Source of the DNA: Escherichia coli
GTDB taxonomy: Bacteria; Pseudomonadota; Gammaproteobacteria; Enterobacterales; Enterobacteriaceae
Direction: 5' to 3' (one strand)
NCBI RefSeq assembly: GCF_024223415.1
Contig: NZ_CP100500.1
DNA length: 64,000 nucleotides
Shown: piece after piece, positions 36,672 through 43,572 of the stretch
How the letters are laid out: each line of letters begins with the position of its first letter
How positions within the stretch are numbered: position 1 is the first letter of the stretch
Notes under the pieces: generated by a model
What the model saw: the letters and a program-made list of their open reading frames with translations, nothing else
What the model was told of the DNA's origin: nothing
The model's database searches: none
Made by a program: the position numbers and the translations under genes

Positions 36672-37985
36672 CTAACACACTGATTTTAATAAGTTTCTTG
36701 TGTCACTTTGGTGACCATGGGACATCATTGGGACATAATCTGCCAGCTTCTGATTCAGCATTGCGATCTGTTCTGCATTACTGTCAGTCATCCATGCTCC
36801 GTATACATTGAACACCATCTGGGCACTTGCATGGCCCATCTGGCTGGCAATGAAGCTTGGGTTTGCTCCGGCAGATAATGACCAGCACGCATAAGTGTGT
36901 CGTGACTGGTATGCTTTCCGGTGCCTGATGCCCGCACGCTTAATGGCTGTTTCCCATGAGTCGCCAATAGAATCTACCTTGTAGATAAAACCGACCTGTT
37001 TGCTTTTTCTAACCACCTGGGGGTTAAATACGAAAGTACATTCATGGTTCACTGTACGTCCATATTCACGTAGTTGAACCTTGATGTGGTGCTGCTTACC
37101 CAGTCTTGTCATTTCAGCCTGATTTTTCAGGACACTGATAGCGGGCTGGATAAGATGCACAACCCTGTTTGTACTTGCTTCAGTTTTAGGTAGAGTGAAC
37201 TCACCGAGTTTCGTATAATTGCGCCTGATAGTAATTGTTCCTGCTTTCAGATCGATATCTTCCCAGGCCAGGGAGACCAGTTCACCATGACGCATTCCTG
37301 TGTACACAGCCAATGACCACAGGTTTTTCGTCTGCTGATGTCGGCAAGCATCTATCAGGCGAATAAATTCGTCACGAGTTAGCGGATCTGGCTCTGCCCT
37401 GGCTCTTTTAAGAGGCTTAATTCCCTGGAAGGGATTTGCTTCTAAGTAACCGTGATCTGCAGCAAACTGAAACATTCCAGCGATTGTCGTCATGTAATAA
37501 TTTACAGTAACGACGCTCCGTCCTTTTGCTGCTGCTTTGTTTTTCGTTGAATTCTGGTACCCGGTCAGCAAATCTTTCCTGATATACAGCAATTCCTCTT
37601 TAGTTACCGATGACACCAGTCTGCTGCCTCCAATTTTCGGAACCATCGTTCTTGCAACGGATTCATAGCGATTGAATGCATTTGCAGAGATCTCCATTCG
37701 TTTCAGATCCAGCCACTTTTCTTCAAGTTCCTTCACCGTAATTTCTTTTTTACTTACCCCAAAAGCCTGAAGGTTAGGGGAGTCAGGGAACTGTGCAGCA
37801 TAATCAAAGCTTCCTGTGCGGATGGCAAAACATACCGATGTCCGCAGTTCCCCGGCGATCTTCCTGTTCTTGGCAGTGTCAGGGACACCAAGATTTTCCC
37901 TGACACGTTTACCTTTAAAATTAAACCAGATGCGTAATGTGCCGCCGTGGTTTTCGACGCCTGTTGGATATTTGACTTTATCCAT
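36672..37985 (-). CDS. int: Tyrosine integrase (437 aa)
   Basis: Lambda-Int-like N-terminal arm-binding region (GTLRIWFNFKGKRVRE). C-terminal catalytic residues (R..HxxR..Y: RHRKAYQSRHTYA...NVYGAW). Abuts the att junction. Confidence 0.92.
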   Translation of the reverse strand: MDKVKYPTGVENHGGTLRIWFNFKGKRVRENLGVPDTAKNRKIAGELRTSVCFAIRTGSFDYAAQFPDSPNLQAFGVSKKEITVKELEEKWLDLKRMEISANAFNRYESVARTMVPKIGGSRLVSSVTKEELLYIRKDLLTGYQNSTKNKAAAKGRSVVTVNYYMTTIAGMFQFAADHGYLEANPFQGIKPLKRARAEPDPLTRDEFIRLIDACRHQQTKNLWSLAVYTGMRHGELVSLAWEDIDLKAGTITIRRNYTKLGEFTLPKTEASTNRVVHLIQPAISVLKNQAEMTRLGKQHHIKVQLREYGRTVNHECTFVFNPQVVRKSKQVGFIYKVDSIGDSWETAIKRAGIRHRKAYQSRHTYACWSLSAGANPSFIASQMGHASAQMVFNVYGAWMTDSNAEQIAMLNQKLADYVPMMSHGHQSDTRNLLKSVC

Positions 37986-38040
37986 TGATACCTCCAGACG
38001 CCCAAGAGCGATACGAGCTTACATACTTCATGGCATTAAA

Positions 38041-38277
38041 TCACCCAGGTTGTTTGTTTTTCATTGAAGCGACCCAGGCATCTATTGCTTTTCTGTTATA
38101 CATACATTCACTGGAAGGCTTTGGATTACCGTCTGGTGATACGTGAATATACTCTCTTCCAACCATCCAGCATTCTTTCCGGGCCCGAAGAATTGTGCCT
38201 GGTTTGAGCCCGGTAATTGCGATTAGAACGCTTTCACAAACCCATTCATTGGGAGCCAGTTGAATCACATTGCCCAT
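38041..38277 (-). CDS. xis: Excisionase-like DNA-binding protein (78 aa)
   Basis: Small basic ORF immediately upstream of int. GAGG RBS. Confidence 0.7.
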   Translation of the reverse strand: MGNVIQLAPNEWVCESVLIAITGLKPGTILRARKECWMVGREYIHVSPDGNPKPSSECMYNRKAIDAWVASMKNKQPG

Positions 38278-38285
38278 GCATTACC

Positions 38286-38432
38286 TCACACAACACTCAG
38301 CCCACGGCAGTGGCACCACACTTCAAACATTCGTTTCACAATTTCACGACAGTAGAAACCGTCAACATCTCGTGTCAGGTCATAGCGATTGCCGTAACGC
38401 TGGTGGACCCATTGTTCAAATGCTTTATTCAT
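38286..38432 (-). CDS. Hypothetical small protein (48 aa)
   Basis: Hand translation gives MNKAFEQWVHQRYGNRYDLTRDVDGFYCREIVKRMFEVWCHCRGLSVV*. AAGGAAG RBS. Tightly packed between neighbouring genes. Below the ORF-track cutoff. Confidence 0.55.
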   Translation of the reverse strand: MNKAFEQWVHQRYGNRYDLTRDVDGFYCREIVKRMFEVWCHCRGLSVV

Positions 38433-38435
38433 TCT

Positions 38436-38678
38436 TTACTTCCTTTTCATGGCCCGTAATTTTTTCAGATGAGTTTCCTGTTCTGTTTCTGCCAGAATTT
38501 GTCGGTATTCCTGATGATCGAGCCGTTCAAACGTTTCATTAAAATCGTTTATTTTTACCGACTGTGTTCGCCCATCCATTCTTCTGTACAACACGGTGTT
38601 ATTTATGCAGCGAATAATTTTTACCGGGTAACCGGCACTGTCGGTATACAGTTGTCCCTGATTAATCAAAGCGAACAT
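38436..38678 (-). CDS. Hypothetical phage protein (80 aa from the internal ATG with an AGGAG RBS)
   Basis: ORF 38436..38801. Start moved to MFALINQGQLY, which follows AGGAGAAAAAATG. Confidence 0.6.
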   Translation of the reverse strand: MFALINQGQLYTDSAGYPVKIIRCINNTVLYRRMDGRTQSVKINDFNETFERLDHQEYRQILAETEQETHLKKLRAMKRK

Positions 38679-38709
38679 TTTTTCTCCTGCTCTCTGAATA
38701 GTGAGAACT

Positions 38710-39075
38710 TCAGAGTCGTATGTTTGTAGCGGGTTCAATGCTGATGATTTCTGCTGAGATAAGCATCCCGGCCAGCCAGAGCTCTCCGGACAGGTTTTCA
38801 TCCTTGCATTCCAGTCCGCCGATATTAATGGTGGCTATGATATCGCGCTTATCCTCGACTTCTTCATAAGGCAGCGTTGCGTACAGGCTTTCAATAGCGC
38901 AACTGATAACATCCAGTCCGGTCAGATTGCCGCCGACAGTGACTTCGAATGTTTCGCGGTATTCCCATAGCCCGAAAGTTAATCGAACGGTTTGTTTTGC
39001 CATGCGCCCGCATGACGTCAGATTCGGGTCATAGTTCATTATTTGCGGTTGAGTATTCTGGGCGTTCATCTGCAT
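38710..39075 (-). CDS. Hypothetical phage protein (~121 aa)
   Basis: ORF 38710..39141. The start at MQMNAQNTQ avoids overlap with the upstream gene. Confidence 0.55.
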   Translation of the reverse strand: MQMNAQNTQPQIMNYDPNLTSCGRMAKQTVRLTFGLWEYRETFEVTVGGNLTGLDVISCAIESLYATLPYEEVEDKRDIIATINIGGLECKDENLSGELWLAGMLISAEIISIEPATNIRL

Positions 39076-39109
39076 TTCCCTTAGCCCGGCGGCCTGCCGG
39101 GCGTATAAG

Positions 39110-39937
39110 TTATTTAACCTGGATAAATGGTGTATTAGCACCGCTGGTCATGTATTGCGGCAGTGTGCCGTTCCATTTATTGATGGCTTCCAGCTCCATA
39201 ACGCCGGGGTTCTGACGCAGAGCTTCACCGCGTAAACGAATAGCATCAGCTTCGGCCTGGGCTTTTGTGCGAATCGCATCAGCCTGTCCGGCAGCTTCTG
39301 CGCGCAACATATTGGCTTCCGCTTCGCGCTGTTTTACTTCCTGCTCGCGCTGCAGTGTTTTCTGGTTCGCCGTGACTTTGGCATTAATGCTGTCGATAAC
39401 TGTTGGCGGGTACTCCGGCTTACCCACATATGAGAGGCTCATTACCTGAATACCGATAGGTGTCATCTCTGCCTGAATGTCTTTAAGAGCTTCATCCAGC
39501 AGCTCAGACTTGCCGCCGTCGATAAATTTGTCAGTGGTCATTTTGCTGGCCAGTCGGTTGAGTGCGTCGGCGATCTTCTGGCGCAGGTCAGTGTCGGTAA
39601 TGTCATCCACGCCTTTGCGGTAGGTCTGAAACACCGTGGTAACTTTGGATGGATCAACTTTGTAGGCCACGCCAATGTGATAGCCGATGGTTGTACCGTC
39701 ACTCATCTGGAAACTGAACGGTTCATCGTAGGTCTTCATTTGTTTGAAGGTGGGGAAGATATAAACTTCAGTATTCCAGCCAGTCCAGTAGCGACCAACA
39801 CCGACCACCTCACCGACGCCTTTGTCGTCGCCCAGTTTATTTACCTTGATGCCAACATTACCTGGTTCAACGCGATCGCAACCGACAAGGCCAATAGTCG
39901 GCAGAACAATGGCTAAAGCAAAAATAATTTTTTTCAT
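39110..39937 (-). CDS. SPFH/band-7 (HflK/C-, prohibitin-like) lipoprotein (275 aa)
   Basis: Signal peptide plus lipobox (GLVGC). Central band-7-like region. Ala/Glu/Arg/Gln-rich coiled-coil tail (QREQEVKQREAEANMLRAEAAGQADAIRTKAQAEADAIRLRGEALRQ). Confidence 0.7.
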   Translation of the reverse strand: MKKIIFALAIVLPTIGLVGCDRVEPGNVGIKVNKLGDDKGVGEVVGVGRYWTGWNTEVYIFPTFKQMKTYDEPFSFQMSDGTTIGYHIGVAYKVDPSKVTTVFQTYRKGVDDITDTDLRQKIADALNRLASKMTTDKFIDGGKSELLDEALKDIQAEMTPIGIQVMSLSYVGKPEYPPTVIDSINAKVTANQKTLQREQEVKQREAEANMLRAEAAGQADAIRTKAQAEADAIRLRGEALRQNPGVMELEAINKWNGTLPQYMTSGANTPFIQVK

Positions 39938-40122
39938 CTTTTATCCTTAGTGAAAGAAAGACCCTTGTAAATGGCATAAATGCAGGGCGGGGTCAGAAAC
40001 GCCAGTGCAAAGCCAGAAATAACTGCTATCGTATCCTTCATGGATATAAGGAACGGAACGAGTAATCCGTAAATGCATGCGATAATTGCCAGTAAAATTA
40101 CTATTGTGAAATACAGTCTCAT
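39934..40122 (-). CDS. Small two-TM membrane protein (62 aa), translationally coupled to the SPFH gene
   Basis: ORF track. Two hydrophobic segments. Its stop overlaps the SPFH start (ATGA). Confidence 0.6.
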   Translation of the reverse strand: MRLYFTIVILLAIIACIYGLLVPFLISMKDTIAVISGFALAFLTPPCIYAIYKGLSFTKDKR

Positions 40123-40145
40123 TGGTCTGTGGTATCCCGATATTT

Positions 40146-40253
40146 TTAACCGACTGACAGCGCAATAAAGAGAATAATGATTTCTGTTAGTGTCAGCACT
40201 GTGGCAAGGATTAAAATCAGTTTTACTCTGTTTAATTCACGGTTGCTTTTCAT
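40146..40253 (-). CDS. Candidate single-TM peptide (35 aa)
   Basis: Hand translation gives MKSNRELNRVKLILILATVLTLTEIIILFIALSVG*. Below the ORF-track cutoff. Same strand and operon. Confidence 0.35.
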   Translation of the reverse strand: MKSNRELNRVKLILILATVLTLTEIIILFIALSVG

Positions 40254-40298
40254 ATAAACGGTTAGTAAAAAACGGAAGAATTATTTTCTTCTTAATAT

Positions 40299-40880
40299 TT
40301 AATGTGTCACTGGCGCTTCTGGCATACCATGAGTATTCAGGTCGTGAATCATTTCATCCAGAAGGAGTTCAAGCCCTTCGCGCCCCATAGCAGAGAGAAT
40401 GAAACCATTATCAGGATCTGCGATGAGCATTTTTTGATAGAGAAACAGAACTCGCCCCATGCCTTCAGTTTCGCCATATTTTTCAATAAATCCCCATTCG
40501 ACATGGTTTTGCAGGGCAATGCGAAGTGGTCCTGGGTATATACTTATGCAACCATGTTTCCCCTTGTAAATAACTGCGCGATCTGTCGTCCCGTTATCGT
40601 TAGGGATATCAATAGTGCCGTTCTTGTCTTCCTCTTCACTGATAAACTTCATCACATACAGCCAGCGCCACTGAGCAACCTTCAGATCGACTGAAAATCT
40701 TCCCAGCAATCCGGCATCATCAGCTTCGGCAAGACATTGCATGATTCTTAAACCGTGCCAGTATGGATTATCGAATTCGCCATCATTAAGCCGCTGTACG
40801 GCCTGAATATAATCAATGGTTGTATTACCAATTTTTATGCCATGTGGCGTTACTTCTGGTCGGAACTCTGAATGATTCAT
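40299..40880 (-). CDS. Hypothetical phage protein (193 aa)
   Basis: ORF 40299..40937. Start at MNHSEFRPEV, which overlaps the upstream stop (ATGA). No recognisable motif. Confidence 0.6.
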   Translation of the reverse strand: MNHSEFRPEVTPHGIKIGNTTIDYIQAVQRLNDGEFDNPYWHGLRIMQCLAEADDAGLLGRFSVDLKVAQWRWLYVMKFISEEEDKNGTIDIPNDNGTTDRAVIYKGKHGCISIYPGPLRIALQNHVEWGFIEKYGETEGMGRVLFLYQKMLIADPDNGFILSAMGREGLELLLDEMIHDLNTHGMPEAPVTH

Positions 40881-41065
40881 AATATTTGCTCCTTTGCTGG
40901 TGGAATAATCGTGTAGCCAGCTCTTTTTGCCATCCACAGAAATGTATCCATGCAGCCAACGAATTCATTATCCAGCAGATGTTTTGAGTAAATTACTTCA
41001 CCATTTTCAATGGTTAGCAACACTCTTACTTTTTTATGTGTTATGTTTTGTTGTTTTTCTTCCAT
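40877..41065 (-). CDS. Hypothetical phage protein (62 aa)
   Basis: ORF 40877..41080. Start at MEEKQQNITHKK after a GGGAG RBS. Confidence 0.5.
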   Translation of the reverse strand: MEEKQQNITHKKVRVLLTIENGEVIYSKHLLDNEFVGCMDTFLWMAKRAGYTIIPPAKEQIL

Positions 41066-41069
41066 TGAC

Positions 41070-41183
41070 TTATCTCCCATATGCTTTGCGCAAATACAGG
41101 TTGGCTATATGAAGATAAGAATCTCCATGTTGTGCAATGAGGCAGGCAGTTTTATACGATGCCTTATGTTTCAGGAAAGTCAT
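41070..41183 (-). CDS. Candidate small protein (37 aa)
   Basis: Hand translation gives MTFLKHKASYKTACLIAQHGDSYLHIANLYLRKAYGR*. AGGAG RBS 7 nt upstream. Confidence 0.35.
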   Translation of the reverse strand: MTFLKHKASYKTACLIAQHGDSYLHIANLYLRKAYGR

Positions 41184-41261
41184 AACATAATCTCCTGCGA
41201 ATAAAGGTTGCAACAATCCCCGGCGATAAAACCGTAATAAACATTCAGGGAATATTTATTG

Positions 41262-41627
41262 TTATTGCGCTAATTCTTTTTCGGCAGCAGATTTTGCATA
41301 TTCACATGCAAAATTCAGAATTTCGCTGCCAAGTGTTTTTGTTTCGTGATTACTGGACATATGTAATACCTGTGTTGCATGCAATAAATGATAAACATTT
41401 ACCGCAAATGAGTCCGGCTCCAGACAAATGCCTTCATAATCATCTTGTTGTGAGGTTGTTTCTGTCATTGCTCCTGAAGTGCATGCGAGCCTGTTTTTGA
41501 CAATTCTCTTTCCTCTAATCACTATATCGGCAACATCTATTGCCTTTACAACCTCCGGGAGAAGTTCCGGGTTTGTATAATCAAAGTCATCAACATGGAG
41601 AACAGTTATGTTTTCGAACTTTTTCAT
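41262..41627 (-). CDS. Hypothetical protein (121 aa). Its C-terminal ~65 aa is paralogous to the N-terminus of the adjacent HTH protein.
   Basis: ORF track. GAGGA RBS. Self-alignment by eye with ORF 41756..42304. Confidence 0.65.
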   Translation of the reverse strand: MKKFENITVLHVDDFDYTNPELLPEVVKAIDVADIVIRGKRIVKNRLACTSGAMTETTSQQDDYEGICLEPDSFAVNVYHLLHATQVLHMSSNHETKTLGSEILNFACEYAKSAAEKELAQ

Positions 41628-41868
41628 GGCTTCCTCAGCTGACTTATATGTTCTGCTATATAGCGAGTCTCAGAAGTGTTTTCATATTGAGACTGTTTCC
41701 GCAATGATTGATAAAAATGTTCGCATGTACCTTGAGGGGCGAAGCGGCGATTATGTCACCATTGGTATTGGTTCTTCCGTAGAAGAGCTTCGCGAGATAA
41801 GGAGCAAACTTGTTGAGATGCGTCATGGTGTTGCTGCTCCTCACTTTTTGGTTGCTCCGGAGGAGTAA
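41608..41868 (+). CDS. Possible opposite-strand ORF (86 aa), convergently overlapping the HTH gene by 113 bp
   Basis: ORF track. GGAGA RBS 6 nt before the ATG at 41608. The sequence looks protein-like (LYVLLYSESQKCFHIETVSAMIDKNV...). It overlaps two minus-strand genes, so it is uncertain. Confidence 0.35.
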   Translation: MFSNFFMASSADLYVLLYSESQKCFHIETVSAMIDKNVRMYLEGRSGDYVTIGIGSSVEELREIRSKLVEMRHGVAAPHFLVAPEE

Positions 41869-42304
41869 CCTCGCCAGTTAACAGCCACATCGGATCGCAG
41901 CCAAGAATATTTGCCAGTGGGGTAAGCATACTGATAGTTGGTTCATACTCTCCGCTCTCCCACTGGATGATGATTTCTTCATCGAGATCGAGCAGCCTGG
42001 CGAGTTCGGCGGTTGTTAAGCCGCAGGCTTCGCGTTGGGTGCGAAGGTTAACCAGCCAGCTTTTAGGGAAGGATTGTTTTTGTTGTGCAGGAGAAGCCGT
42101 AGATAGAGCATATTCATGGATAAATTCCATTACCTCAATGCCCAGTTCCTTTGAGCGAGCACAATCCAGAAGATGGAATGTGCGTACAGCACTTAGCAAA
42201 TTTGCAATATTTAATGCAAAGGAATCAAGTTCTAAGCCTTCAAGCGTAACACAGCCGCAGTTGATAAAATTAGTTGTTTCTGGAGTTGCTTTTAGTGTCT
42301 TCAT
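41756..42304 (-). CDS. First gene of the leftward operon: N-terminal shared domain plus an XRE-type helix-turn-helix (182 aa)
   Basis: The HTH region is LRTQREACGLTTAELARLLDLDEEIIIQWESGEYEPTISMLTPLANILGCDPMWLLTGE. It occupies the slot where lambda has N. Confidence 0.7.
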   Translation of the reverse strand: MKTLKATPETTNFINCGCVTLEGLELDSFALNIANLLSAVRTFHLLDCARSKELGIEVMEFIHEYALSTASPAQQKQSFPKSWLVNLRTQREACGLTTAELARLLDLDEEIIIQWESGEYEPTISMLTPLANILGCDPMWLLTGEVTPPEQPKSEEQQHHDASQQVCSLSREALLRKNQYQW

Positions 42305-42334
42305 ATACCCACCAACAATTTTAAATTGAATTTA

Positions 42335-42386
42335 ATCAAGTTATAATTGATGGTGCGATATTATGCTTTGAGAAATAGGCTGTCAA
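42335..42386 (-). promoter_or_regulatory. Candidate pL: near-consensus sigma70 promoter with an operator-like palindrome at the start site
   Basis: On the minus strand: TTGACA (42381-42386), a 17-nt spacer, TAATAT (42358-42363). The 17-bp palindrome ATCAAGTTATAATTGAT lies at 42335-42351. Confidence 0.55.
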
Positions 42387-42413
42387 GAAAAAATTGATAC
42401 CGTGTGTTTTAGG

Positions 42414-42438
42414 CAGAAAAAAACGGGCAAAGCCCGTT
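42414..42438 (-). terminator. Intrinsic terminator after the cI-like repressor gene
   Basis: On the minus strand: AACGGGC-ttt-GCCCGTT followed by a T-run. Confidence 0.7.
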
Positions 42439-42449
42439 AAAATCAAAGA

Positions 42450-43139
42450 CTAACCAAATCTGTTTATATTGAATGGTACTGATGAGATCACTTTAGACTG
42501 GATATAAAGCAGAGCTAACCCCTCTTTTTCGATGCTCCATGGTTGATAATTGGGGTTATCAGATAACACCATGATTTTGCTTCCAATTTTTTGAAGTCTT
42601 TTCACGTAGCATTCTCCATCAAAACAAAATGCATAAATGCCATCGCCATCAAAATAAGTTACTGTCTTATCAAGAAAAAGAAGGTCGCCAGGTGAGATTG
42701 TGGGAGCCATACTGTCTCCTCTGGCGTTACCTATTTCTATATTTTTGAATGCCCGATTTCCAACAAGGCGTCGGGCATATTCAGGATCAAGTTCTATTGA
42801 GCGCACTACATCTATCAAGTCACCACGGACATGAGTTCCATCACCGCAACTAAACTCAACATCAAGGACATTAAACACGACGCTATCTGTTCTTGTCTGG
42901 TGTTTCTCTTGCGAGGAAAAGGTTGGTGAGGAGTCTTCACCTAAGAACCAGGATTGTGGATAACCGCTAATCTCGGATAAATGCGCGAGCTTATCACTCC
43001 GTGGAAATGTTTTTCCTGTTGTCCAGTACTGCACTGATTGCGCACTCACACCTAACTTGCGGGCCAGTTGAGCCTGAGTCCATCCTTTTGCTTTCAGCAT
43101 CGCGGCTATTCGATTTTCCGTGTTTTTGACGTTCTTCAT
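42450..43139 (-). CDS. cI: CI-like prophage repressor: XRE HTH plus S24 (LexA-like) autopeptidase (229 aa)
   Basis: N-terminal HTH (KGWTQAQLARKLGVSAQSVQYWTTGKTFP). C-terminal GDSMAPT (Ser) and YVKRL (Lys) catalytic dyad. ATG at 43137-43139. Confidence 0.85.
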   Translation of the reverse strand: MKNVKNTENRIAAMLKAKGWTQAQLARKLGVSAQSVQYWTTGKTFPRSDKLAHLSEISGYPQSWFLGEDSSPTFSSQEKHQTRTDSVVFNVLDVEFSCGDGTHVRGDLIDVVRSIELDPEYARRLVGNRAFKNIEIGNARGDSMAPTISPGDLLFLDKTVTYFDGDGIYAFCFDGECYVKRLQKIGSKIMVLSDNPNYQPWSIEKEGLALLYIQSKVISSVPFNINRFG

Positions 43140-43272
43140 GACCAAATCCTGTGGGTTTCTTTACAAGGATAAATCTTTACTTGATTTTAGTGTATTCGAT
43201 CCTTTTGCAACTTGCATGTTAATTTAAACTTGATGTATTCTTGATTCATAAAGTTAATGTTGGTGCTTTGTT
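43140..43272. promoter_or_regulatory. Immunity switch region (divergent pRM/pR-type promoters and operators)
   Basis: 133-bp AT-rich gap between the divergent repressor and cro-like genes. Repeated (A)CTTGAT motifs at about 43180, 43229 and 43240. Palindrome TGCAAcTTGCA at 43206-43216. The CTTGAT motif recurs in the pL palindrome. Confidence 0.5.
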
Positions 43273-43572
43273 ATGAAAGGAAATGATTACGATAAACTTC
43301 GTGCATTAATTGCGCAAAATGCCATAGCGCGAAATCTTGGTGTGACGCCGCAAGCGGTGAATCAGTGGTTTTCAAAAAACACAATTCCTGCTCGTTTCGT
43401 TTTACGCGTATGTGAAGTAGTTGCATGGAAGGTCACGCCACATGGCTTAAGGCCAGATCTTTATCCTCACCCTGAAGATGGAATTCCTGATTCGTTACGC
43501 AAAATTTCAAATCCAAGCTTAGCGCGCACGGAAGATGGGCAGAGTGATTCATCAGAAATGTCCACGCGATGA
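43273..43572 (+). CDS. Cro/YdaS-like HTH protein (99 aa)
   Basis: IARNLGVTPQAVNQWFSKNTIPARFVLRVCEV... is YdaS/Cro-like. First gene rightward of the immunity region. Confidence 0.7.
   Translation: MKGNDYDKLRALIAQNAIARNLGVTPQAVNQWFSKNTIPARFVLRVCEVVAWKVTPHGLRPDLYPHPEDGIPDSLRKISNPSLARTEDGQSDSSEMSTR

Follow-up and report, generated by a model that had tools for sequence, protein, structure and literature searches.

An SPFH Lipoprotein Gene and Its Overlapping Two-Transmembrane Partner Gene in the Early Region of a phiP27-Like Shiga-Toxin Prophage

Results

A Two-Gene Module in the Left Arm of the Prophage

The stretch of DNA analyzed here (hereafter the window: 64,000 nucleotides of the Escherichia coli contig NZ_CP100500.1, assembly GCF_024223415.1) is a phiP27-like Shiga-toxin (Stx) prophage, the left arm of which occupies 36.6–43.2 kb of the window, with all of its listed genes on the minus strand. 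Within this arm lies the subject of the present study, a module of two genes: an SPFH lipoprotein gene encoding 275 amino acids (aa) (39110–39937, minus strand), recognized from its open reading frame (ORF), from Pfam and PHROG, and from a DNA match to phiP27, and a partner gene encoding a 62-aa protein with two transmembrane (TM) segments (39934–40122, minus strand), recognized from its ORF, its match to phrog_1130, its ratio of nonsynonymous to synonymous polymorphism (pN/pS), a hidden Markov model (HMM), and natural fusions. At the DNA level, the 1.4 kb around the module share 98.3% identity with phage phiP27 and about 94% with several Stx2a/Stx2d-converting phages. The SPFH gene corresponds to phiP27 L05 (P27p05), to which its product is 100% identical, and the module as a whole is a member of a widespread, already annotated phage gene family.

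The two genes meet at a coupling junction (39934–39948, minus strand) where the TGA stop of the partner overlaps the ATG start of the SPFH gene within ATGA (39934–39937), and where an AAGGA Shine-Dalgarno (39944–39948) lies inside the partner gene, 6 nt upstream of that ATG. An earlier note on this DNA had given the coordinates of both ORFs, a lipobox, and the ATGA overlap, all of which we find as it described them. Among 80 close IMG/VR loci, the 80th of which is truncated at the gene start, the partner is intact and the same 4-nt overlap is kept in all 79 that include upstream sequence, and overlaps of a similar kind are found in P88, N4, and phiE125.

The SPFH Protein Is a Predicted Inner-Membrane Lipoprotein of Cage-Type Fold

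The N-terminus of the SPFH protein, MKKIIFALAIVLPTIGLVGC followed by DRVEPG, reads as a signal peptide of the form MKK-hydrophobic-LVGC, with the signal peptide over residues 1–19, the lipobox L17-V18-G19-C20, and Asp21 at position +2 (39878–39937, minus strand). The LVGC tetrad satisfies the lipobox pattern [LVI][ASTVI][GAS]C, and Cys20 is conserved in at least 90% of a 128-sequence alignment and retained in the fused forms described below. In E. coli, Asp at +2 is the signal that retains lipoproteins in the inner membrane by avoidance of the Lol system. Since the +2 residue among 86 lipobox-positive representatives is, by falling frequency, S, T, D, G, and E, this rule is applicable to the enterobacterial members of the family. 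On this basis, Cys20 is expected to carry the lipid anchor, and the mature protein to stay in the inner membrane while its body projects into the periplasm. The fused forms, which carry three TM helices ahead of the conserved Cys, lead to the same topology as the lipobox does, with an extracytoplasmic SPFH body.

Beyond the lipobox, residues 22–208 (39314–39874, minus strand) form an alpha/beta SPFH/Band-7 domain according to Pfam (Band_7, PF01145: 109.2 bits against a cut-off of 23.6, E = 3e-31) and to an AF2 model, and the protein matches phrog_200, named “lipoprotein,” with E = 2.7e-114. In the model, built on the 128-sequence alignment with a predicted local distance difference test (pLDDT) score of 83.5, the strands and helices of residues 20–175 have a pLDDT mostly of 85–95 and are followed by a single unbroken helix of about 65 residues (178–242; 39212–39406, minus strand), which is rich in Ala, Glu, Arg, and Gln and is identified as a CC1-type helix by the model and by full-length Foldseek alignments; in SPFH cages, such a helix forms the wall. 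According to the alignment and the model, a CC2-like short helix (residues 244–254) and a flexible C-terminal tail come last (39113–39211, minus strand); the tail bears the motif KW-G-LP, in which W255 and G257 are invariant and P260 nearly so. This region is presumed to be cap-forming, a role drawn by analogy from solved SPFH cages (PMC12624060).

When the model was compared with known structures by Foldseek, it aligned with the full-length protomers of HflC, erlin, prohibitin, HflK, stomatin, flotillin, QmcA, and vault at 14–19% identity, with E values of about 1e-13 to 1e-14 for HflC, erlin, and prohibitin, up to 1e-9 once stomatin and flotillin are included, and 1e-8 for QmcA; the model of a fused form (P0320) returned the same list, with identities up to 20%. 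A PDB search with the single sequence matched HflK and a prohibitin-2 fragment alone (E from 4e-4 to 5e-3), and a family profile search placed prohibitin-1 first (E = 1.3e-10, full length), followed by prohibitin-2, HflK, HflC, and QmcA. The NCBIfam equivalog models for HflC (TIGR01932) and HflK (TIGR01933) were both failed, with 25.9 bits against a cut-off of 134.4 and 23.1 bits against 159.4, respectively. Taken together, these searches and the model identify the protein as a predicted cage-type SPFH protomer of a distinct subfamily. This subfamily is large, with 3,019 clusters when the threshold is E ≤ 1e-3 and 228 when it is E ≤ 1e-30; most are 270–300 aa long and matched end to end, and the distant members are named “prohibitin family protein” by NCBI. 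The earlier note's description of a 275-aa SPFH/Band-7 lipoprotein with a coiled-coil tail of the HflK/HflC/prohibitin type is thus upheld by Pfam, AF2, and Foldseek alike. For SPFH cages, the number of subunits has been related to the length of CC1 by the regression subunits = 0.1782 × CC1 length + 10.22 (PMC12624060), from which a helix of 65 residues would, by extrapolation, give about 22 subunits per assembly.

The product name “serine protease,” which is attached to this gene in phiP27 and in Stx phages, was considered and rejected, as the protein matches no protease family. The label presumably derives from an old COG name, “membrane protease subunits, stomatin/prohibitin homologs,” still attached to one homolog by the Joint Genome Institute (JGI).

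A Conserved Two-TM Partner, Sometimes Fused to the SPFH Protein

The 62-aa partner has two hydrophobic segments, a basic C-terminus, and positive-inside charges, and it matches phrog_1130, an unnamed PHROG, with E = 2.5e-23. Its signature runs from TM1 through P-x-[LM]-[ILV]-S, a short polar loop x(6), and V-x-x-G to TM2 and a basic tail. In 24 aligned partners, Pro23, Ser27, and Gly37 are invariant, and all three are located around the periplasmic loop. An HMM of this family was applied to 80 diverse viral loci in which the SPFH protein is 53–70% identical to the query: exactly one ORF was matched in 77 of them, lying directly upstream and on the same strand in 72, and none of 2,902 opposite-strand ORFs was matched; across the whole 64-kb window, the 62-aa ORF alone was matched. 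Among loci from bacterial genomes, the partner was found in 49 of 58 (directly upstream in 46, fused in 3). A partner of the same family also lies upstream in P88, P1-like, N4 (gp19), and phiE125 (gp44) phages, in three contigs of T4-like or large phages, and in Dyella; in the P2-like P88, the P1-like phage-plasmid, and N4, it is a small two-TM ORF overlapping the SPFH start. The partner ORF has been left unannotated in the public records NC_003356 (phiP27), MH445380 (P1-like), and JN126049 (PhiSH19). In the rV5-like Klebsiella Mydovirus record OY979426, the partner and the SPFH gene are separated by an extra ORF for a soluble protein of 54 aa.

Natural fusions join the two proteins into one chain. 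Among the 150 best representatives of 50%-identity clusters, 26 are 320–392 aa long, and at least 17 of these are in-frame partner–SPFH fusions, in which an N-terminal partner domain is joined through a basic linker to a third hydrophobic helix, the end of which is still [GAS]-C. Two fusions recovered independently, P0320 and P0356, have this same layout, and the latter retains an internal MKK...GC signal-peptide start. The model of P0320 (pLDDT 90) consists of TM1 (residues 3–25), a loop, TM2 plus a helix (30–65), TM3 (72–84), the Cys, the SPFH domain, and a helix of 65 residues. The length of phrog_200, 379 positions of which the SPFH protein of the window covers 81–359, is consistent with fused members in that family. 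Because the lipobox Cys is present in the fusions (P0160, P0164, P0320, P0356, and others), it is a possibility that signal peptidase II cuts the polyprotein in two; such a cut would yield the two products that the split genes encode. The evidence from fusion, overlap, and synteny combined argues that the SPFH protein and its partner act as one unit, and the coupling proposed in the earlier note is borne out by the junction kept in 79 of 79 loci, by the HMM results, by the fusions, and by a partner pN/pS of 0.21 (see below).

Two established identities were tried for the partner. The earlier note had placed it with the NfeD-type proteins that often accompany bacterial SPFH genes, a family defined by a C-terminal OB-fold (PF01957). 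This assignment does not survive: 62 aa leave no room for an OB-fold, none of the 24 partners has a Pfam match, and an hhalign comparison with E. coli YbbJ reached a probability of 32%, with a generic TM-plus-basic stretch aligned. The partner was also compared with class II holins and antiholins, whose topology (N-in/C-in) it resembles, and this identity was rejected: it does not show their signature, a holin family search of the 24 partners returned one sub-threshold match (E = 0.038), and the gene lies in early regions, distant from lysis genes, as for N4 gp19 relative to the lysis cassette gp60–63.

Distribution across Phages, Plasmids, and Chromosomes

By tblastn, homologs of the SPFH protein were found in 413 of 50,697 phage records (about 0.8%), 378 of them near full length. 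The carriers include N4, rV5-like, FelixO1-like, PaP3-like, phiCbK-like, crAss-like, Lak, and jumbo phages as well as Myxococcus Mx1, and the temperate ones include Burkholderia phiE125, in which the SPFH protein is gp43 and the partner gp44. In the virulent phage N4, gp20 is the SPFH homolog (62% identity) and gp19 the partner. The pair is also present in T4-like genomes (with Gp23, T4 RNA ligase, and SegE/NUMOD3 in the context) and in phage-like contigs of 169 and 42 kb, and the fused P0320 locus contains small early-type ORFs and an adjoining Acb2/Tad1-like gene. Phages that infect soil, plant, and aquatic bacteria are frequent carriers of the module, and its neighboring genes differ in every phage examined. 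Among complete E. coli genomes, 569 of 5,426 (about 10%) have a DNA match, with the partner type of the window in 217. A homolog is likewise found in 612 plasmid records, 593 of them non-mobilizable; those sampled measure 92–138 kb, the size of P1-like and pMT1/pHCM2-like phage-plasmids, and include Yersinia pestis plasmids of 99 and 138 kb. Finally, about 25 Dyella/Rhodanobacteraceae species hold the pair in a single conserved chromosomal neighborhood, where the partner and SPFH genes are divergent from genes for a BlaI-family repressor and a 675-aa protein, with ribonucleotide reductase beyond. This stable chromosomal locus indicates that other phage genes are not needed for the module to work. 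Some Dyella genomes hold a further copy elsewhere, at about 70% identity.

Two annotations in public records that might have pointed to a function were rejected. The label “RIIB lysis inhibitor” on the SPFH homolog of OY979426 (2132–3379) is an artefact of offset CDS coordinates, at which there is no ORF; the real ORFs are the partner, the 54-aa ORF, and the SPFH gene, and a search of a viral fold library found no rII relation for the SPFH protein. The “superinfection exclusion protein” beside the SPFH gene of PhiSH19 is a separate soluble protein of 106 aa and not the partner; the true upstream neighbor of that SPFH gene is an unannotated 72-aa two-TM ORF. With regard to phage SUSP1, for which there is a CRISPRi-ART fitness screen, neither an SPFH nor a partner gene is present in its genome.

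Contrasting Selection and Mosaic Structure of the Two Parts

Within 50 phiP27-type loci, pN/pS (Nei–Gojobori) is 0.03 for the SPFH gene and 0.21 for the partner, values that reflect purifying selection on both, very strong in the former. Between the phiP27-type, P88, and P1-like versions, the mature SPFH protein is 95–98% identical, the signal peptides 40–58%, and the partners 21–48%, and the DNA match between these phages begins and ends within the SPFH gene. The guanine-plus-cytosine (GC) content is 50–54% in the SPFH core versus 38–45% in the partner and flanks, and, in the phiP27-type set, the SPFH gene has about three times the pS (0.198) of the partner (0.057) or of a neighboring 35-aa ORF (0.074). 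These contrasts in identity, GC content, and synonymous diversity indicate that the SPFH core and the membrane part have had different histories. We can offer no firm explanation for them, the sole candidate being recombination at the junction between the signal peptide and the mature protein.

Position and Expression Signals

The module sits in the leftward early region, with the repressor on one side and the xis/int genes on the other. Lambda keeps accessory genes such as cIII in the corresponding leftward early region, and the earlier note was therefore correct to place the module where lambda carries cIII. After the repressor gene come a terminator-like hairpin (42438–42422) and then a good promoter-like site, TTGACA-17-TAATAT (42386–42358); as the module is downstream of this pair, it lies in the leftward early operon. 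Elsewhere, the pair sits gap-free in the cox-to-A early operon of P88 and comes after the RNAPII genes in N4. From this gene position, it seems reasonably probable that expression of the module accompanies that of the early or middle lytic genes and does not take place in the resting lysogen.

The module has a promoter candidate of its own, a weak promoter-like site (9/12) at 40310–40283, before the 35-aa ORF. Eight nucleotides after the SPFH stop lies a GC-only hairpin, GCCCGGC-aggcc-GCCGGGC (39084–39102, minus strand), which has no T-run, was unreported by the terminator scan, and is not a canonical terminator. A moron layout, with its own promoter and terminator, is accordingly unsupported, given this weak site and a hairpin devoid of a T-run.

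Neighboring Genes and the Upstream Slot

The other genes of the left arm, all on the minus strand, are the integrase (36672–37985), the excisionase (38041–38277), and a DUF5406 ORF (38710–39141 as listed), with a DUF4222 ORF between the last two in the gene list; then, beyond the module, a hydrophobic 35-aa ORF (40146–40253), three ORFs without known function, a helix-turn-helix (HTH) protein of 182 aa that matches a “CII-like regulator” PHROG (41756–42304), and a cI/LexA-like repressor (42450–43145). An Rfam scan of positions 38000–43500 of the window gave no match.

The start of the DUF5406 ORF is probably misassigned, both in the program-made ORF list and in the phiP27 annotation: its PHROG match starts at residue 25, and an AAGGGA Shine-Dalgarno (39082–39077) stands 7 nt before an ATG at 39069. 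This later start would leave a 40-nt spacer holding the GC hairpin (39102–39084). Farther along the arm, phiP27 L08 (a 121-aa ORF at 41262–41627, minus strand) and the N-terminal part of the 182-aa HTH protein match the same PHROGs, phrog_5451 and phrog_4587, which points to a duplicated domain shared by the two ORFs.

The earlier note had coupled one or two tiny membrane proteins to the SPFH lipoprotein and had suggested a survey of the co-occurrence of the three ORFs. Such a survey retains the 62-aa partner, conserved with the SPFH gene across phages, and leaves out the 35-aa ORF, a neighboring feature outside the conserved module. Although all 50 phiP27-type loci keep the latter open, it is present solely with a phiP27-type L06 gene upstream; it is gone in about 30 loci with another neighbor and absent in P88, P1-like, and N4 loci. 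It has no Shine-Dalgarno and no Pfam or PHROG family match, and its pN/pS of 0.53 against 0.85–1.21 in its off-frames is a weak coding signal. We therefore reject it as a member of the module, since it goes with the upstream L06-type gene; it could nonetheless be a real small membrane peptide. The slot upstream of the partner is a swap point, occupied by the L06-type gene with the 35-aa ORF, by a 131-aa ORF (MIDNRT...), or by a 92-aa ORF (MSNQNK...).

Discussion

A Proposed Periplasm-Facing Cage with a Separate Membrane Foot

The explanation that best accounts for these observations, which we nevertheless put forward tentatively, is that the module builds, early in the lytic cycle, a periplasm-facing SPFH cage with a detachable TM foot, for which FtsH would be the leading client candidate. 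The SPFH protein would first be lipidated at Cys20 and, through Asp at +2, kept in the inner membrane, from which its body would extend into the periplasm. This body would be a complete protomer of the prohibitin, HflK/C, and erlin kind, made of an SPFH domain, a CC1 helix of about 65 residues, a short CC2, and a cap-forming tail. The two-TM protein, presumably produced at about 1:1 with the SPFH protein, would act as the TM foot that other SPFH proteins carry within their own chain. Taken jointly, the topology, the cage-type fold, and the status of the two-TM protein as an obligate partner appear to us very probable. Some 20–24 copies could then assemble into a dome that encloses a patch of the inner membrane on its periplasmic face, an arrangement that we consider rather likely, and production would occur alongside the phage's early or middle lytic genes.

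In the last and least certain step, the dome would capture or shield a conserved host inner-membrane client. The extreme constraint on the SPFH protein, its spread over unrelated phages and bacterial phyla, and one case of domestication point to a conserved inner-membrane client of the host, or to the membrane itself, more than to a phage target that evolves fast. The HflK/C cage encloses the periplasmic domains of FtsH (PMC12624060). Because HflK/C holds these domains and prohibitins partner the mitochondrial homolog of the protease, FtsH is the obvious candidate and our first choice, albeit one that we judge doubtful when taken by itself. Capture of FtsH would shift the turnover of its substrates, namely CII/CIII-type regulators in temperate phages, and sigma-32, LpxC, and small membrane proteins in any phage. 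On a bolder version, the module would be a virus-encoded periplasmic nanocompartment caging FtsH or a genome-entry component, and would thereby reprogram membrane proteostasis or bar competitors; we see this as rather unlikely, but, if true, it would reveal an unrecognized and widespread class of host-takeover device, carried by N4, Stx phages, P1-type plasmids, and crAss-like and jumbo phages.

Several considerations weigh against this cage hypothesis. Lipidation, localization, oligomeric state, and client are inferred for every member of the family. Identity to HflK/C and prohibitin is as low as 14–20%, and erlin and stomatin score about equally well by fold, so the similarity does not single out FtsH partners; moreover, the HflK and HflC equivalog cut-offs are failed, and the module has a single SPFH gene and no K/C pair. 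The client of the SPFH protein could simply be the partner itself, and the divergence of the partners between near-identical SPFH proteins is not what would be expected of a simple passive foot. Outside Enterobacterales, position +2 is occupied by Ser or Thr in many family members, so that inner-membrane retention rests on the fused forms and on the integral-membrane nature of the partner. The weak 9/12 promoter-like site could, for its part, permit expression in the lysogen.

Other Readings of the Module

A role in superinfection exclusion, in which an early periplasmic dome and its TM partner block the genome entry or periplasmic attack of later phages in the manner of T4 Imm and Sp, is in our view unlikely, although several features speak for it. 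Early small inner-membrane proteins and lipoproteins are a classic form of phage exclusion, and a benefit to virulent and temperate phages alike matches the distribution of the module. The fast divergence of the partner and signal peptide around a near-identical mature SPFH protein would be expected if the membrane part conferred specificity. In N4, gp18 (1907–2221 in the N4 locus), directly upstream of gp19–gp20, is annotated as similar to P22 gp17. The P22 protein has been linked to escape from superinfection exclusion. Furthermore, the exclusion system of N4 is explicitly described as unidentified (PMC12642591). The earlier note had offered exclusion or abortive infection as its alternative; this finds no support in the sequences, as no defense-system model of PADLOC-DB v2 was matched by the three ORFs and five neighbors at E ≤ 0.1. 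In addition, an SPFH pN/pS of 0.03 and the stable chromosomal copy of some 25 Dyella species are more in keeping with a conserved host partner than with an arms race, and the “superinfection exclusion protein” of PhiSH19 is, as reported above, a separate soluble protein. Finally, superinfection is thought to drive lysis inhibition in N4, and yet none of more than 60 spontaneous rapid-lysis mutants maps to gp19 or gp20 (PMC12642591), on which ground we reject a link between these genes and N4 lysis inhibition.

The same mutants also count against another reading to which we give similarly little credence, namely that the module protects the membrane or counters host defenses, with a scaffold that steadies the inner membrane and the proton-motive force and that either delays premature holin triggering or blunts membrane-acting abortive-infection effectors. 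SPFH assemblies are membrane organizers (PMC12624060), and the module occurs in phage early regions beside counter-defense genes, such as the Acb2/Tad1-like gene of the P0320 locus, and in phages with a long latent period and a large burst, such as N4; in Dyella, the BlaI-family repressor and the 675-aa protein may resemble BlaI/BlaR-type envelope signaling. This support is wholly circumstantial, however: the neighbors differ from phage to phage, and there is no similarity to repair proteins of the PspA/ESCRT-III type.

A lysis–lysogeny device, which would replace lambda cIII and stabilize a CII-like activator through FtsH, was the first function proposed in the earlier note. The idea is not new, as the link from HflK/C through FtsH to CII was printed for phage SPFH genes in 2021 and 2023 as speculation (PMC8540360, PMC10269572). 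The leftward early position between the repressor and xis/int, the match of the 182-aa HTH protein of the same operon to a “CII-like regulator” PHROG, and the effect of the related HflK/C on CII via FtsH (PMC8540360, PMC10269572) are all in its favor. Nonetheless, the same module is found in the strictly virulent N4, in T4-like contigs, in rV5-like phages, and in phiCbK, as well as at a non-phage chromosomal locus, and the SPFH protein has no similarity to CIII; the carriage by strictly lytic phages had already been noted beside the original idea (PMC8540360), so that this objection too is in the literature. This presence in virulent phages and at the stable Dyella locus weakens a lysogeny-specific role; a role restricted to the lysis–lysogeny decision is unlikely as the general function, and we regard the device as quite improbable.

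The least credible reading, and a very improbable one, is that of a lysogenic-conversion or virulence lipoprotein, expressed from the prophage, exported in outer-membrane vesicles, and acting on the animal host. A precedent exists in PM0222, an “HflK/C-like” SPFH protein from a prophage island of Pasteurella multocida that activates TLR1/2 and whose deletion attenuates virulence (PMC9872710), and the window is a prophage of Stx type in a pathogen lineage. Against this, TLR2 recognizes any triacylated lipoprotein, Asp at +2 predicts inner-membrane retention, the module's own promoter is a weak consensus match, the module lies in early lytic operons, and phages of soil, plant, and aquatic bacteria often carry it.

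What the Module Means

In the literature that we searched, no characterized phage system of this kind was found, in line with the earlier note, and for no phage SPFH gene did the searches turn up more than speculation about its function. Genome papers repeatedly call the presence of the gene unexplained, as late as 2026, when one noted it and described its role as unclear (PMC13239085). The obligate and sometimes fused two-TM partner, the lipid-anchored periplasmic topology, and the breadth of carriage, N4 included, appear undescribed in that literature. The vague label “band-7 protein” can thus give way to a defined two-gene, sometimes fused, module of virulent and temperate phages that is able to live as a host gene, for which N4 gp19–gp20 offers a genetically tractable test bed. 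The SPFH cages of HflK/C, prohibitin, erlin, stomatin, and flotillin have recently been solved, and their roles are debated; in this regard, the module would be a compact form, one lipid-anchored SPFH protein with a membrane foot of about 60 aa, moved by viruses across very different lineages. If FtsH were indeed the client, the module would represent a second phage route to that protease after lambda CIII, and a structurally unrelated one.

Comparison with Known Systems

With regard to function, T4 Imm and Sp are possible analogues, as small early envelope proteins of a virulent phage, and the likeness is one of analogy only. PM0222 is, like the SPFH protein of the window, prophage-borne, and is the sole such protein with experimental data in the searched literature (PMC9872710); however, it is reported to act on macrophages via TLR1/2 after vesicle release (PMC9872710), and the two are likened on SPFH class, not subfamily.

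Among cellular systems, HflK/HflC–FtsH has the same architecture of an SPFH domain, a long CC1, and a cap region, in a cage-type protomer that faces the periplasm from the inner membrane, and HflK and HflC are among the best sequence and fold matches of the SPFH protein. They differ from it by an identity of 14–20% and by equivalog models (TIGR01932 and TIGR01933) whose cut-offs it fails; they also form a paralogous pair, each with an N-terminal TM segment in its own chain, whereas the module has a single SPFH gene, a predicted lipid anchor, and a separate two-TM protein. Mitochondrial prohibitin PHB1/PHB2, the partner of the FtsH-type m-AAA protease, is the best full-length profile match, and a similar CC1 length predicts about 22 subunits, the number in PHB1/2. 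Identity is again 14–20%, and prohibitin is hetero-oligomeric, whereas the SPFH protein is predicted to be homo-oligomeric and lipid-anchored, and is bacterial or viral.

The operons of SPFH and NfeD genes (E. coli QmcA–YbbJ, PDB 8z5g; Pyrococcus PH1511–PH1510) resemble the module in that the SPFH gene overlaps a gene for a small membrane protein and is cotranscribed with it. The partner of the module, in contrast, has no OB-fold and no NfeD Pfam match, and it is encoded upstream of the SPFH gene, whereas ybbJ lies downstream of qmcA. QmcA also faces the cytoplasm, unlike the SPFH protein of the window, which is predicted to be periplasmic. The closest counterparts of the module are its own relatives: N4 gp19–gp20, phiE125 gp44–gp43, phiP27 L05, P88 gp11–gp12, phiCbK_141–142 (in which the partner is diverged from that of the window, with 116 aa and three hydrophobic segments), and YPMT1.49c of Y. 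pestis pMT1 all belong to the same family and have the same two-gene layout.

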